Origin: an uncultured Pseudomonadales bacterium
Lineage (GTDB): Bacteria > Patescibacteriota > Microgenomatia > UBA1400
DNA: 64,000 nucleotides
Assembly: GCA_964589815.1 (NCBI GenBank)
Contig: CAZPUR010000005.1
Coordinates: forward strand, 7,472-71,471
Direction: 5' to 3'
The position numbers and the translations under genes are program-made. A model generated the notes under the pieces. That model worked only from the letters and a program-made list of their open reading frames with translations, was not told the origin of the DNA and made no database searches. How positions within the stretch are numbered: position 1 is the stretch's first letter; every line of letters starts with the position of its first letter. Positions 36,993 to 58,653 of this stretch are shown here, one piece after another.

Positions 36993-38873
36993 TTAACTAT
37001 TAACCGTATTATAATTGTTTGCGCTATTGTCCTGGTTGTTGTTAATGGCTTGTGGGATAACTTGTTCCCCTTTTTGTTTAGCAATGATTTCTTCTGGTTT
37101 GGAGGTGACGAGGCTGTATTCTTCTGGTGAGGCAACGACTTTTATAGAAACATGGTTAGCCCCGGCAAAAAACAGACCATGGCCTATGTCACAGGAAAGC
37201 AACAGGTTCTTTTCCCCTTGAGAGAGATAAAAAACCTCCGCTACTTTATCGATTGCCGCCGGCGACTGTTTCATCAACAACTGAATGGAAGAGTTGGTAA
37301 TAATAGCTTTGCCATAATCATTGCTTAAGAAATCTTCAACGTCTTGGGTAATAGTAGTTACTCCTAAATAATACTTTCTCGCTCTTTTAGCCATAGAATA
37401 TAAGAAGCTGGCAGAATCCTGACTCTTCATTAAATACCAGGCTTCGTCAACAATTAAGAGTCTTTTTCGAAGCTCCTTTTTGATTTTAGTCCAAATATAG
37501 TCAAGGATAATAAACATGGCTACCGGCCTTAGTTTGTCTTCAACGTCTTTAATGGCGAAAACTGTAAATGGATTAGTTAGTTTTACGGTTGAATGTTGGT
37601 TAAAAATGCCTTTTAAACTTCCCTTAATAAACCTTTCTAGTCTGGCCGCCAAAGAACTTGCCTCAGTTTGTTCCATGCCAATTAAGACTTTATATAAATC
37701 TTCCATTAATGGGGGTTTATTTTTTTGGGTTTGCGGATCTTGGGTAATGCCTTTTTGCTGATAAGTAAGGACCAAGGCTTGGTCTAAAAGAGCTTCTTCT
37801 TGGGGAGTTAATGTGCCCATAATAATTTTAAATAAAGAATGTAAAGAAAGAATTTTCAAGCCAAGCTCATTTTCTCCTCTTTGTAAAGTTAGGGAAAGGT
37901 CGAAAGGGTTAATTTTTGAAGGGGAAGTAGAGGAAAAATTAATATATTCACCTTTAACCGCTTGGCAAAGGTCTTGGTATTCATTTTCAGGATCAATGGC
38001 AATGACTTCTGTTCCAAAAAGCAAAGAGCGCATTGCCTCGAGTTTAATAGTAAATGACTTTCCTGCTCCAGACTTGCTTAAAACAACCATATTGGCATTT
38101 TCCAAAGAAAAGCGGTCAAAGATAATTAAGGAGTCATTGTGCTCATTAATACCATACATAATGCCCTCATTTGAACTTAGTTCTGAAGAGGTAAAGGGAA
38201 AAGTAGTTGCCAAAGAAGTGGTATCCATATTTCTGGTAATCATCAATTTATCTAAACAAGTAGGTAAAGTAGTTTTAAAAGCATCTTCCATTTGCAGGGT
38301 AGCGGCCTTGGAAATGATTAAAAGTGAACCCAGGGTCGATTGAACTTGCTTGGTGGCCTTATTCAGACTCTTAAGATCAGGAGCGCTGATGGTAACATAT
38401 AAAGCAAATTGGAAAAACCTTTCGGCGCCTTTAGCCAGTTCTTTTTGCAGGGAGTGGGCATCTTCTAGTTTAACTTGAGTTTCCACATTGACAATTTTCC
38501 CTCGTTGTAAATCTGTTTGGATTTCTGCTTCCATTTCCCCAATTTTTTTTCTTAAGTCGTCTAAAATGCCTCTTCCTTCAACCGGGTAAATATACATGGC
38601 AATATCCAGGGTTTGGTTAAAATTAATCAACGGAGTCAGCCAATTAGCGTTAACAAAACGAGGGTAACCAGAAACAAAGAGGGTTCTGAAAAGAGTTTGG
38701 CCGACCTTAAGATGACTAAATTCAACTTCAATTGAGGGTGGAGCGATAATATCTTGAACAGAAGTTAGGCCTTGACTTAATAAAGCCAGAGATTCTTGTT
38801 TAAAAGACCCTTTTGGTTTAGGCTTGTTTTGTTTGAGTGGTGTCATGTTTTTCTTGCTGAACTTTTTCAACAA
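36993..38873 (-). CDS. VirB4/TrbE/CagE-family type IV secretion ATPase (CagE_TrbE_VirB region + P-loop ATPase)
   Basis: TLFRTLFVSGYPRFVNANWLTPLIN (CagE_TrbE_VirB-like); Walker A VVLSKSGAGKSFTIK; Walker B LLIVDEAWYLM (the DEAW typical of VirB4); 626 aa. It overlaps the upstream ORF by 56 nt. Confidence 0.8.
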   Translation of the reverse strand: MLKKFSKKNMTPLKQNKPKPKGSFKQESLALLSQGLTSVQDIIAPPSIEVEFSHLKVGQTLFRTLFVSGYPRFVNANWLTPLINFNQTLDIAMYIYPVEGRGILDDLRKKIGEMEAEIQTDLQRGKIVNVETQVKLEDAHSLQKELAKGAERFFQFALYVTISAPDLKSLNKATKQVQSTLGSLLIISKAATLQMEDAFKTTLPTCLDKLMITRNMDTTSLATTFPFTSSELSSNEGIMYGINEHNDSLIIFDRFSLENANMVVLSKSGAGKSFTIKLEAMRSLLFGTEVIAIDPENEYQDLCQAVKGEYINFSSTSPSKINPFDLSLTLQRGENELGLKILSLHSLFKIIMGTLTPQEEALLDQALVLTYQQKGITQDPQTQKNKPPLMEDLYKVLIGMEQTEASSLAARLERFIKGSLKGIFNQHSTVKLTNPFTVFAIKDVEDKLRPVAMFIILDYIWTKIKKELRKRLLIVDEAWYLMKSQDSASFLYSMAKRARKYYLGVTTITQDVEDFLSNDYGKAIITNSSIQLLMKQSPAAIDKVAEVFYLSQGEKNLLLSCDIGHGLFFAGANHVSIKVVASPEEYSLVTSKPEEIIAKQKGEQVIPQAINNNQDNSANNYNTVNS

Positions 38874-39654
38874 TATTTTTTATGGTTTGTTGTAATTTTT
38901 GTCCCCGAGGCTGTTCTATTTTAGTGCTTGGCGCTGGCGGGACTAAGGTATTAACTGGCCTAGCCGCCCTAGGGTTATTTAAATTTGTTGGAGGTGGCGG
39001 AGGAGTTTCTGGCAGCGACGCTGGTTTTAGATTAGACTGGACTAAAGAACCGCTATAGTCTGCAGAAGAAGTGAAGCCTTGACCTTCAACCACAGGATTA
39101 TAAATATTATGTAAGAGTTCAATAATTTCTTTATCAGTTAACTGAACTGCTTTTAAGCCTAAACGTTGGAGTTGACCAATCAGGTGGTCTCGTTTGGGAT
39201 AAAGGTCGGTTTTGGCTTTTTCCAGCAAAGCCTGTTTTTGAGTTTTTTTGAACTGGATTGAGTTAAAAGGGACAATGAGATAAAATTTTTTATCCAAAAC
39301 TTTATTTTTTTTAACAGTGCTTTCTACAAATTGGCGGTATTGTTGAGTCCTGGCGCGCAGGGTTTCATCAGGCTGCTTTTGTATCTGTTCATCTATTAAA
39401 GCAAGATAAAAGGAAATATCTTTTTGACGTGAATGGATAAGAATTTGAATAGAAAAAGCTAAAGAATTTAAAAAAGCCGCATAAGCAAAAATAGTGGCTT
39501 CTTGTTCTCGTTCTGAAAGAAGACCAAAATTGACGGCGGTAGTTTTTAAAATCAAAGCACAAGAACCATTTTTTAAAATCACCAAATTATCCTGGACATC
39601 TTCAATACTGAGATGGTCTTGGGTGCTGGAGCGGATGTTTGTTTGGGCAGACAT
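38818..39654 (-). CDS. VirB4 N-terminal-domain-like protein (possibly the detached first segment of VirB4) with a Pro-rich C-terminal linker
   Basis: LVILKNGSCALILKTTAVNFGLLSEREQEATIFAYAAFLNSLAFSIQILIHSRQKD resembles the extreme N-terminus of VirB4/TrbE proteins (..lkdGs..a.....G.d..s.s..E...........L......q.....r.). The tail is ETPPPPPTNLNNPRAARP. The gene directly precedes and overlaps the VirB4 ATPase gene. Confidence 0.5.
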   Translation of the reverse strand: MSAQTNIRSSTQDHLSIEDVQDNLVILKNGSCALILKTTAVNFGLLSEREQEATIFAYAAFLNSLAFSIQILIHSRQKDISFYLALIDEQIQKQPDETLRARTQQYRQFVESTVKKNKVLDKKFYLIVPFNSIQFKKTQKQALLEKAKTDLYPKRDHLIGQLQRLGLKAVQLTDKEIIELLHNIYNPVVEGQGFTSSADYSGSLVQSNLKPASLPETPPPPPTNLNNPRAARPVNTLVPPAPSTKIEQPRGQKLQQTIKNIVEKVQQEKHDTTQTKQA

Positions 39655-39690
39655 AGTTAAAATTCAAAATTTAAAATGCAAAATTAAAAA

Positions 39691-57743: not shown

Positions 57744-58282
57744 GGTACAAATACGTCCGGTGTTGGACCATAAATTTTGGGACTAATAATCATGGTCGCG
57801 TCGCCAAATAATAACCAGCCGAAAATGGCCGCCAAAGTATAGGAGGCAGCAATAATAACTAAGCCAATTAAAGAATTCCAGATTTTACCTTGGGCGCTTT
57901 TAATTTTCTCTGGGTCGCCCTGAGAAGAAATAAATTCCAAACCTGATAAGATTAAATTAATGACAGCAAAAAGCCCGGCCACAATAGTTAAAAGTCTTAA
58001 GACATTGGAGAAAAAATTAATTAAACCAAAGCCACCTTCGCCGCCGACTTCTGTTGAACCATGTTTTCCCAACCAGCCTGGAGGTTGGACCTCGCCGATG
58101 ATGCTGTCTTGAGCATATGCAAGAGAAATTAACCTAATTGACCTAATTTCTAATTGACCTAAAAAAGCACTAAATCCCAATAGTCCAATAAAATAATAAA
58201 AAAATTTTCTAATTTTGATCTTTCCCGATGCTTTGATCGAGGATACTCGACTTTTTCGTCGGTATAATTTTAAACTTTGCAT
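57740..58282 (-). CDS. Pilin-like small two-TM protein, paralog 6 (long N-terminal leader; start uncertain)
   Basis: ...LLTIVAGLFAVINLILSG LEFISSQGDPEKIKSAQGKIWNS LIGLVIIAASYTLAAIFG. The 5' part contains cctaatt-type DNA repeats (58130-58165), so the true start may be internal. Confidence 0.5.
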   Translation of the reverse strand: MQSLKLYRRKSRVSSIKASGKIKIRKFFYYFIGLLGFSAFLGQLEIRSIRLISLAYAQDSIIGEVQPPGWLGKHGSTEVGGEGGFGLINFFSNVLRLLTIVAGLFAVINLILSGLEFISSQGDPEKIKSAQGKIWNSLIGLVIIAASYTLAAIFGWLLFGDATMIISPKIYGPTPDVFVP

Positions 58283-58299
58283 TTTAAATTTTAAACTTT

Positions 58300-58653
58300 T
58301 TAGACTCCTGATTTAAAAATAGGGATACCGGTTAAAAATTCAATTAGTTTGATAATCCAGAAACTGGCAAAGACTAAGGCAAAACCAATAATGGCGGCCG
58401 TCAGAGCCTTACTGCCTTGTTTTTGTTTTTCCGGATTGCCTGATGAAGTAATTATAGCAAAACCGCCGGCAATAAGCAGAAGAAATAAAATTAAAGAAGC
58501 AATAATATAAACATTAGGGAGAACATTAGAAATAAGTTCGCCCAGGGAACCATAACCAGCAGCACTTTTAATTCCTCCTCCTCCCGGTTTAAGCTTAAAC
58601 TCCTCACCAATATCAATGGCTAGTTTGACAGGCATTTGAAATAATAATAACAT
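58300..58653 (-). CDS. Pilin-like small two-TM protein, paralog 7 (first gene of the array)
   Basis: ...NVYIIASLILFLLLIAGG FAIITSSGNPEKQKQGSKALTAA IIGFALVFASFWIIKLI. Confidence 0.55.
   Translation of the reverse strand: MLLLFQMPVKLAIDIGEEFKLKPGGGGIKSAAGYGSLGELISNVLPNVYIIASLILFLLLIAGGFAIITSSGNPEKQKQGSKALTAAIIGFALVFASFWIIKLIEFLTGIPIFKSGV

Follow-up and report, generated by a model that had tools for sequence, protein, structure and literature searches.

The window analysed here is the whole 64-kb stretch of contig CAZPUR010000005.1, assigned to the Microgenomatia, and its subject is the set of 21 closely spaced genes at 36993-58653, a block that adjoins dnaN and encodes the components of a type IV secretion system (T4SS). 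These include a VirB4 ATPase divided between two open reading frames (ORFs), a PrgI/VirB3-like protein, a candidate VirB6-class channel protein, an array of seven VirB2-like pilins and a giant membrane protein of a wall-hydrolase family (Table 1).

Gene content and layout of the locus

The block lies beside the presumptive origin region, in which rnpA, yidC, jag and an RNase H gene on the minus strand stand upstream of dnaA (34098-35477) and dnaN (35718-36860) on the plus strand. A candidate oriC occupies the dnaA/dnaN gap, and the cumulative GC-skew minimum falls at approximately 31-34 kb of the window. The virB4 gene is convergent with dnaN, the two stop codons being 133 bp apart. From there the block resolves into three apparent transcription units: a minus-strand unit running from 58653 to 51816 (seven pilins, a Cys-rich secreted protein and the VirB6-like protein), a plus-strand unit from 48988 to 51795 that consists of a 935-aa protein alone, and a second minus-strand unit running from 48772 to 36993, in which a 684-aa protein, a 117-aa protein, an HExxH membrane protein, the giant hydrolase-family protein, a 183-aa protein, a four-helix-bundle protein, PrgI, the TrsD-like protein and VirB4 follow one another. 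Gene tiling leaves no space in the locus for an overlooked gene. A scan for consensus promoters and terminators returned counts near shuffle expectation, no better than chance. AT-rich, short-period, low-complexity motifs (tccaaa/tttgga, ttctaat and aaagtt) occur in the gaps at 36861-36992, 58654-58760, about 150-210 and 39659-39694; in the convergent gap between dnaN and virB4, two tccaaa runs form a facing inverted pair that may fold into a bidirectional terminator hairpin.

Table 1 Coordinates of the T4SS locus and associated features in the 64-kb window (aa, amino acids; TM, transmembrane; GA, Pfam gathering threshold; T4CP, type IV coupling protein)
Feature	Position	Strand	Evidence or remark
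Soluble T4CP-like (VirD4/TraD/HerA-type) ATPase	6772..8934	-	Pfam TrwB_AAD_bind 1.3e-8, T4SS-DNA_transf 2.8e-7, TraG-D_C 1.6e-5
Candidate oriC	35469..35623	.	six clustered DnaA-box-like 9-mers, dnaA/dnaN gap, ~1.4 kb from virB4
VirB4 ATPase, C-terminal ~3/4 of ancestral VirB4	36993..38873	-	Pfam P-loop_TraG 5e-33, CagE_TrbE_VirB 1.6e-4
TrsD-like protein, detached VirB4 N-terminal part	38818..39654	-	NCBIfam TrsD 7.7e-8
PrgI/VirB3-like protein, 2 TM helices, C-terminal immunoglobulin (Ig)-like (CarboxypepD_reg) domain	39691..40677	-	Pfam PrgI 9e-9, CarboxypepD_reg 3e-7
Four-helix-bundle protein (23S rRNA intervening-sequence (IVS) protein family)	40693..41070	-	PF05635 6e-21, TIGR02436 1.8e-24
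Small bitopic protein, 183 aa, TM 9-34	41219..41770	-	beta-rich, weakly Ig-like ectodomain; Big_5 E 0.007, below GA; fast-evolving
Giant membrane protein, 1268 aa, candidate for VirB1/PrgK role	41773..45579	-	cytoplasmic N-region, Gly-rich TM block, extracellular Ig-like region, then M23-like domain
Candidate intramembrane zinc protease, polytopic, 5 TM	45584..46333	-	invariant LPGTxIHExSH and MFSSxxDL motifs, 5 homologues
Small highly charged protein, 117 aa	46354..46707	-	composition
Charged protein, 684 aa, single C-terminal TM (642-660)	46718..48772	-	orphan; first gene of virB4-side unit
Divergent intergenic region, 215 bp	48773..48987	.	separates 684-aa and 935-aa genes; presumed promoters (gene layout)
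Charged all-helical protein, 935 aa, single C-terminal TM	48988..51795	+	small conserved family linked to T4SS loci
Putative VirB6-class polytopic channel protein	51816..53306	-	fold search
Secreted Cys-rich protein, 818 aa, 3.3% Cys, signal-anchor	53347..55803	-	fast-evolving; may be an adhesin, a pilus-tip protein or a substrate
VirB2-like pilin 7 (last gene of array)	55816..56118	-	PF18895 1e-14, NF045849 1.9e-7; 62% identity to L082 7th pilin
VirB2-like pilin 6	56161..56565	-	PF18895 1.2e-13, TrbC/VirB2 0.0018; 67% identity to L082 6th pilin
VirB2-like pilin 5	56636..56968	-	PF18895 8e-6, 26.3 bits (GA 26.6); 46% identity to L082 5th pilin
VirB2-like pilin 4	56971..57324	-	PF18895 7e-9; 59% identity to L082 4th pilin
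VirB2-like pilin 3	57327..57743	-	PF18895 1e-10; 54% identity to L082 3rd pilin
VirB2-like pilin 2, long N-terminal leader	57740..58282	-	PF18895 2.9e-7; 47% identity to L082 2nd pilin
VirB2-like pilin 1 (first gene of array)	58300..58653	-	PF18895 9e-10; 52% identity to L082 1st pilin

The VirB4 ORF scores 393.9 bits against the NCBIfam profile conju_CD1110 (NF045971; cutoff 325), covering profile positions 172-735, and contains both a P-loop read from the sequence as SGAGKS and the Walker B motif LLIVDE. The adjacent TrsD-like ORF matches positions 16-171 of the same profile, together with positions 100-282 of VirB4_plasma. Because these spans are complementary, the two ORFs represent the two halves of one ancestral VirB4, and the N-terminal half is the TrsD component known from the literature. 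A one-genome-per-species scan yielded 411 relatives, of which the best 80 were used for locus comparisons; these belong to the Microgenomatia (Beckwith-, Shapiro-, Curtiss-, Chisholm-, Gottesman-, Woese- and Collierbacteria). VirB4 is 64-83% identical across the 80 loci, the trsD-like gene adjoins virB4 in 71 of them, and PrgI, which scores 36.2 bits in the window (GA 27), is found in 69.

The VirB6-class protein had no match among Pfam or NCBIfam profiles or in a profile search of the PDB, and was placed by fold search alone, with a modest ranking (Foldseek E 0.015, TM-score 0.3-0.44). It has 405 homologues, and we take it as the polytopic channel protein of VirB6 type expected of such a system. 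A protein with a predicted VirB6 fold would then exist in Microgenomatia, where surveys based on hidden Markov models (HMMs) call VirB6 scarce.

All seven pilins possess two TM helices, and six exceed the gathering threshold of PF18895 (T4SS_pilin; GA 26.6), with the seventh falling just under it. The paralogues are only distantly related to one another (26-43% identity within the locus). When they were compared with the pilins of L082, a related locus whose extent stops within its TrsD-like gene, identities on the diagonal were 46-67%, versus mostly 22-44% off the diagonal, where one short match of 64 residues reaches 51%. The L082 VirB6 is only 50% identical to that of the window, yet pilin order and orthology are kept. 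The presence of one-to-one orthologues in the same order indicates maintained, specialised paralogues, and suggests that seven individually kept pilins divide the work among them, for instance as major and minor pilins, and do not form a rapidly turning-over variation cassette. The array is distinct from type IV pili, as its members are PF18895 two-TM hairpins that lack a G/FTLIE-type leader, and a Pfam search of the locus genes found no type IV pilus assembly domain of the PilB, PilC or PilD type.

All seven pilins also match NF045849, the 'Mbov_0395 family pilin-like conjugal transfer protein' model built on Mycoplasma integrative and conjugative elements (ICEs), with E values of 5e-8 to 2e-4 that lie below the 40-bit cutoff. 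At the level of sequence, these matches hint that pilin-like proteins may exist in a lineage of the FATA class of mating-pair formation systems (MPF-FATA), contrary to the usual view of monoderm T4SSs as lacking VirB2. A tblastn search of the pilins against plasmids found no match, and only two plasmid records carry such pilins.

An earlier sequence-only reading had described this interval as a T4SS-like locus, and the ORFs and Pfam/NCBIfam profiles bear out that gene content, including the seven pilin-like genes, the four-helix-bundle gene and two big charged proteins that each prove to have a single C-terminal TM segment. Its split VirB4 is literally correct, with the break at about position 171/172 of conju_CD1110. 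PrgI had been listed first, whereas the actual order from dnaN is VirB4, TrsD-like, PrgI; and the list of genes had omitted the 117-aa gene at 46354-46707.

Position, composition and inheritance

ORFs of at least 110 aa across the window and every gene of the locus were scanned for mobility domains. None of them contains a domain typical of a relaxase (MOB), an integrase, a recombinase or a transposase, and none matches an oriT-processing function, in agreement with the earlier statement that relaxase, integrase and recombinase are absent. Nor is there a T4CP or an excisionase in or near the locus, or a tRNA in the window.

The locus had also been described, by eye, as richer in GC than its flanks. 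The excess is real (39.4% versus 36.1% and 36.9%) but small, and it resides in codon positions 1 and 2 rather than at third positions, where GC content (GC3) is 0.333 versus 0.312. Relative synonymous codon usage (RSCU) correlates with the rest of the window at r = 0.96, against 0.97 for a split-half control, so that the GC and codon-usage scan that had been proposed returns a native profile, and we rejected the GC island as a sign of foreign origin.

The arrangement dnaA-dnaN-virB4-trsD-prgI recurs in 62 of the 80 Microgenomatia loci (dnaA and dnaN being identified by homology in 62), and several of those without the full arrangement are short contigs; the conservation at the origin that was to be checked is therefore present. 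The position of the locus and its flanks are kept across the whole class, and VirB4 identity tracks taxonomy. Elsewhere in the locus gene order shuffles while the gene set persists: the hydrolase lies between virB4 and dnaN in some relatives, and in some the pilins and VirB6 are directly upstream of prgI. From the flank beyond the pilins (HMG-CoA reductase and sigma-factor genes) to its own end within the TrsD-like gene, L082 runs colinear with the window. Its sigma-factor gene stands directly next to the pilins, and no polyprenyl synthase is present there; the flanking gene thus differs, and the junction is neither clean nor conserved.

An exact direct repeat of 12 nt, AAATTCCAAACA, is found at 36867 and 58710, at both borders of the locus. 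We considered these copies as att sites and rejected them: the 12-mer lies within low-complexity 'tccaaa'/'ttctaat' spacers that recur in other intergenic regions of the window, and these motifs explain the apparent repeat. The proposed comparison of 36865-36898 with 58711-58733 gave this generic 12-nt match only, and no ICE junction.

The closest plasmid VirB4 proteins are 30-37% identical to that of the window, come from monoderm hosts and are annotated as CD1110 family; membership of the Patescibacteria VirB4 clade was judged here by percentage identity as a proxy for a tree. In conjugative relatives (Embleya, Paenibacillus) VirB4 is full-length and has a T4CP and a relaxase as neighbours, and pilins are absent. 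We therefore consider it highly probable that the locus is a vertically inherited, non-conjugative T4SS of the Patescibacteria type. The sequence-only reading had likewise favoured a domesticated apparatus over a mobile element, a view that gains support from the lack of mobility genes, the native codon usage and the synteny, and that matches published work (PMC12102498, PMC10633639); all the checks proposed with that reading gave results in its favour.

Partner proteins and genes elsewhere in the window

Homologues of the giant membrane protein adjoin virB4 in at least 12 loci; a direct homologue search returned the query alone, and its relatives came from related loci instead. Among 11 members of the family, an M23 domain is present in four (best 2.9e-19), CHAP in one and SLT_3 in one, a survey from which it follows that the hydrolase family swaps M23, CHAP and SLT modules. 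The family profile matches M23 enzymes of the PDB, namely TagE (1.5e-10), ShyA, LytM and lysostaphin. The M23 hydrolase of the sequence-only reading is accordingly robust at the family level, although the window copy taken alone is marginal (E 0.033, below GA). In this copy the HxH motif and the central His are kept, and a Tyr occupies the position of the first zinc-ligand His. A canonical M23 peptidase at 463-1224, at the far left of the window (Pfam 2.6e-24), is unrelated to the T4SS-linked M23-like domain.

The next gene encodes the HExxH membrane protein, in which the HExxH and D motifs lie within TM segments and which is syntenic in L002, L003 and L082. It had been read as an M50B-like peptidase; no Pfam or NCBIfam match supports that family, whereas the conserved HExxH...D pattern does hold. 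The small 117-aa protein has weak homologues in L002 (at the equivalent position), L003 and L020.

The two charged proteins with C-terminal TM segments are unrelated to each other. For the 684-aa protein no homologue was found in protein families, the PDB or related loci, and it is absent from L082. The 935-aa protein, by comparison, belongs to a family with nine close homologues and 119 representatives in 1.84 billion proteins, in which many core residues are invariant; members occur in T4SS loci L082, L003 and L028, and a positional analogue, reverse-oriented and with ~35% charged residues, follows VirB6 in L008, L009, L015 and L065. A PDB profile search with this family was empty and its AlphaFold2 model is poor (pLDDT 59).

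The 818-aa Cys-rich protein has no family or PDB match. The gap between pilins and VirB6 holds a Cys-rich protein with a signal peptide in L008, L009, L015, L065 and L082 as well, and a positional rule emerges among relatives, in which the pilins are followed by a Cys-rich protein of 580-1540 aa with a signal peptide, this by VirB6, and VirB6 by a protein of 600-940 aa that has the opposite orientation and ~35% charged residues. The 183-aa bitopic protein has no homologue among the related loci, and a 191-aa gene occupies the equivalent position in L082.

The four-helix-bundle gene has the lowest GC content of the locus (29%) and is bracketed by a 47-nt imperfect inverted repeat (40655-40701 and 41078-41124) with perfect 12-nt termini, AGAGTTAAAAGT...ACTTTTAACTCT. 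Homologues stand just upstream of prgI in L012 and L023 and are absent from L002, L003 and L082. The gene is probably a stem-bracketed passenger cassette inside the T4SS operon and not a part of the T4SS.

The only VirD4-like ATPase had been described as soluble, 28 kb away and inside the pur operon. The first two points stand, as the T4CP-like protein has no TM segment and lies at that distance from the locus; its Walker A and B motifs are intact, and its NCBIfam matches are all far below cutoff. The third is incidental, since pur genes come and go among relatives. The ATPase is 61-86% identical in metagenomes, where the genes conserved next to it are those for radical-SAM, CTP-transferase and groEL. 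When positions 4054-11846 of the window are set against L087-L090, the order radical-SAM, T4CP-like, CTP-transferase, groEL appears in L087 and L088, and purB is retained in L089. In this lineage the pur genes thus act as a variable cassette, and because relatives do not conserve the neighbourhood, we rejected the idea that they are functionally tied to the T4CP-like gene. Any tie between the ATPase and the T4SS locus is hypothetical.

Two further observations concern other parts of the window. The purH gene (8974-10528, minus strand) is broken into a pair of overlapping ORFs whose order is permuted: AICARFT profile positions 68-311 fall in the upstream one (9569-10528), and the downstream one (8974-9633) covers AICARFT positions 1-58 together with the MGS domain. 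The pattern is more than a simple frameshift and could reflect a rearrangement or an assembly artefact. Two DUF4012 proteins (19864-21318 and 28495-31200), one of them fused to an NAD-dependent epimerase domain, form with nearby VanW and LytR_cpsA_psr genes an envelope-biogenesis neighbourhood typical of candidate phyla radiation (CPR) genomes.

Function and relation to known systems

Taken together, the locus is very probably a vertically inherited, origin-proximal T4SS of the Patescibacteria clade, derived from Gram-positive MPF-FATA conjugation machinery and no longer conjugating. Its components are demonstrated, and from them we infer the steps by which it may work. The split VirB4 (TrsD-like N-terminal part plus ATPase part), docked at the membrane through PrgI/VirB3 and the VirB6-fold protein, would constitute the cytoplasmic-membrane translocon. 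This translocon would pull two-helix VirB2-like pilins from the membrane and polymerise them into an extracellular filament or conduit, while the giant membrane-anchored M23-family protein would open or remodel the cell wall at the assembly site. The secreted Cys-rich protein, whose gene occupies a VirB5-like position between the pilins and VirB6, is a candidate tip protein or adhesin. The assembled apparatus may then contact a host bacterium and mediate exchange, either exporting effectors or other proteins or taking up host molecules, in the service of an epibiotic lifestyle rather than of DNA transfer. A VirB2-type filament or conduit that reaches outside the cell and serves host interaction would be consistent both with these parts and with the genetics of Saccharibacteria, in which transposon sequencing (Tn-seq) by Wang et al. 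2023 found a homologous T4SS cluster and pilin array essential for the epibiotic growth of Southlakia epibionticum (PMC10633639).

Several points weigh against this interpretation. The putative VirB6 comes from a fold ranking of modest score with no sequence support, and no VirB8-like protein was recognised in the locus. To our knowledge, no pilus has been observed in any Patescibacterium and no substrate has been identified. The epibiotic lifestyle of the organism is presumed by analogy with its phylum. The Tyr in place of the first zinc-ligand His may, judging from the sequence, render the M23-like domain of the window copy non-catalytic. Finally, the 684-aa, 935-aa, 117-aa, 183-aa and HExxH proteins have no assigned roles.

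One alternative is that the locus builds only an adhesion organelle or surface filament, a pilus that attaches to the host while nothing passes through the channel. Seven pilins and a fast-evolving Cys-rich secreted protein resembling a host-recognition adhesin would suit such an organelle, as would the lack of a membrane T4CP to recruit substrates. However, Patescibacteria already adhere via type IV pili (PMC10633639, PMC11623550), the Ptl and Brucella VirB systems secrete proteins even though they too lack a T4CP (PMC12102498), and the conserved large cytoplasmic proteins with C-terminal TM segments could act as substrates or as machine parts on the cytoplasmic side. We consider this alternative unlikely.

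A DNA-import machine comparable to the archaeal Ced system or the Helicobacter pylori ComB T4SS, which would feed nucleotides or genes to a biosynthesis-poor cell with the soluble T4CP-like ATPase as DNA motor, is quite improbable. VirB4 does match CedB (1.5e-15) and the T4CP-like ATPase does match CedD (8.9e-10), the system has no relaxase, and the T4CP-like gene stands among purine genes in this window. Yet both matches are weak (56.9 bits for CedB versus a cutoff of 700, 37.8 bits for CedD versus 600) and do not place the proteins in the Ced families, and the pur neighbourhood is not a conserved one. Competence in S. epibionticum, moreover, requires type IV pili and ComEC; the T4SS is essential there, while the t4cp homologue is not (PMC12857230, PMC12102498). 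Since a comEC deletion abolishes transformation and leaves the cells viable, the essentiality of the T4SS does not act via transformation (PMC12857230). DNA uptake, one of the functions offered by the sequence-only reading, was thus its weakest part.

That the locus is an ordinary ICE, or the decayed remnant of one, lying beside dnaN by chance is largely refuted and highly improbable, for although the machinery descends from conjugative MPF-FATA systems, the borders share a 12-nt repeat and the locus is ~3 GC points richer than its flanks, these features are outweighed by the missing mobility genes and tRNA, the native GC3 and RSCU, the class-wide conservation of position and flanks with a VirB4 that follows taxonomy, and the occurrence of the repeat in low-complexity spacers found in other intergenic regions too.

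Returning to the vertically inherited, host-interaction T4SS that we prefer, we propose tentatively, and with less than even confidence, that the Microgenomatia version is more than a copy of the Saccharibacteria system, a proposal that takes three readings jointly. Ancient, separately kept pilin paralogues may imply a heteromeric filament or divided roles, not antigenic variation. The ~935-aa family and the HExxH protein could be lineage-specific machine parts or substrates, and the HExxH protein could process the long pilin leaders. Lastly, the occurrence of the core architecture on a Bacillota megaplasmid, together with the matches of all seven pilins to the 'Mbov_0395 pilin-like' model, suggests that VirB2-like pilins were already present in a monoderm MPF-FATA sublineage and are neither co-opted from diderm systems nor exclusive to CPR bacteria.

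The system itself is already described, in 2023 and 2025, and the sequence-only reading, which the analysis bears out, was anticipated there point by point. A survey of 3,035 Patescibacteria genomes by Quinonero-Coronel et al. 2025 defined a monophyletic, relaxase-less VirB4 clade nested in MPF-FATA, in which TrsD and PrgI adjoin virB4, VirB2 arrays comprise 2-11 genes, especially in Microgenomatia and Saccharimonadia, with an average paralogue identity of 25% and a maximum of 54%, hydrolases contain M23 domains, T4CP homologues are mostly far from virB4, relaxases are almost absent, and the T4SS lies near dnaA/dnaN in Paceibacteria and Microgenomatia (PMC12102498). A 2025 review speculates that the T4SS is a conduit for host exchange (PMC12857230). 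The window locus resembles this clade and its S. epibionticum representative (SEML1_0006-0019) in its MPF-FATA VirB4 (at most 37% identical to any plasmid VirB4), adjacent TrsD and PrgI, VirB6 homologue, divergent VirB2-like pilin array, peptidase-type hydrolase in place of a classic VirB1, lack of a relaxase and local T4CP with a remote T4CP homologue, and chromosomal location beside dnaA/dnaN. We see no difference in kind: the window has a VirB6-fold protein with no Pfam match, whereas the survey finds VirB6 scarce in Microgenomatia by HMM (PMC12102498), and its lineage adds the 935-aa C-terminal-TM family, the HExxH membrane protein and the 684-aa orphan.

The window therefore holds no new kind of system but a clean and complete example of it from the Microgenomatia, carried on a long contig, and what we add is modest: one-to-one pilin orthologues, module swapping in the hydrolase, the VirB6-fold protein, the positional rule, the ~935-aa family and the core architecture in Pontibacillus. 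The T4SS is nonetheless among the few conserved envelope machines of CPR bacteria, essential in Saccharibacteria, and the leading candidate for host exploitation by these ultrasmall bacteria, so that the HMM-missed VirB6-fold protein, the conserved pilin paralogues and the conserved partners are targets for structural and genetic work.

With Gram-positive MPF-FATA systems (pCF10 Prg/Pcf, pGO1 Trs, CTn2/CD1110-type, pIP501) the locus shares a CD1110-family VirB4, PrgI/VirB3, a detached N-domain of TrsD type as in pGO1, and a membrane-anchored, multi-module wall hydrolase. PrgK carries LytM, SLT and CHAP modules, and the giant protein of the window is comparable. It differs in that the conjugative relatives have a membrane T4CP and a relaxase by a full-length VirB4 and no pilins, whereas the window locus has neither of these genes, has seven pilins and is fixed at the origin. 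The Gram-negative VirB/D4 systems of the MPF-T class (R388 Trw, Agrobacterium tumefaciens VirB) offer parallels in their two-helix VirB2-type pilins, VirB6-fold stalk or channel protein and VirB3/VirB4 pairing, and in a secreted-protein gene between the pilin and VirB6 genes, like VirB5. In contrast to them, the window locus lacks VirB7, VirB9, VirB10 and VirB11, shows no recognised VirB8 and no VirB5 homology, and belongs to a monoderm organism.

The same order of core genes recurs outside the Patescibacteria on the Pontibacillus sp. ALD_SL1 megaplasmid NZ_CP062975.1 (351-361 kb, L083). There, two PF18895 pilins are followed by proteins resembling TrbL/VirB6, PrgI/TraL and TrsD, by a VirB4 of the CD1110 family (36% identical) and by a hydrolase of 1050 aa with M23 and NlpC/P60 domains. 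Neither a relaxase nor a T4CP is encoded within 14 kb of this locus, and the replicon is typed as non-mobilizable. The locus differs from that of the window in its Bacillota host, its 898-kb replicon, its adjacent flagellar genes, its complement of only two pilins and its location away from dnaA. We considered whether this 898-kb 'plasmid' might be a misassigned CPR chromosome, and the flagellar genes and megaplasmid-like content at the start of the record argue against it. Along with a second record, from Priestia megaterium (NZ_CP045273.1, ~685-689 kb, L086), it makes a pair of ~1-Mb 'plasmids', typed as non-mobilizable, in which PF18895-like pilins are found together with a TrsD-like gene and a VirB4 of the CD1110 family that is 35-40% identical to that of the window; the Priestia record is almost unannotated and its VirB4 is interrupted by ~330 nt. 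By sequence, pilin-bearing monoderm T4SSs may thus not be exclusive to CPR bacteria, and the Bacillota system, with a host in pure culture, might serve as a tractable model for the apparatus described here.

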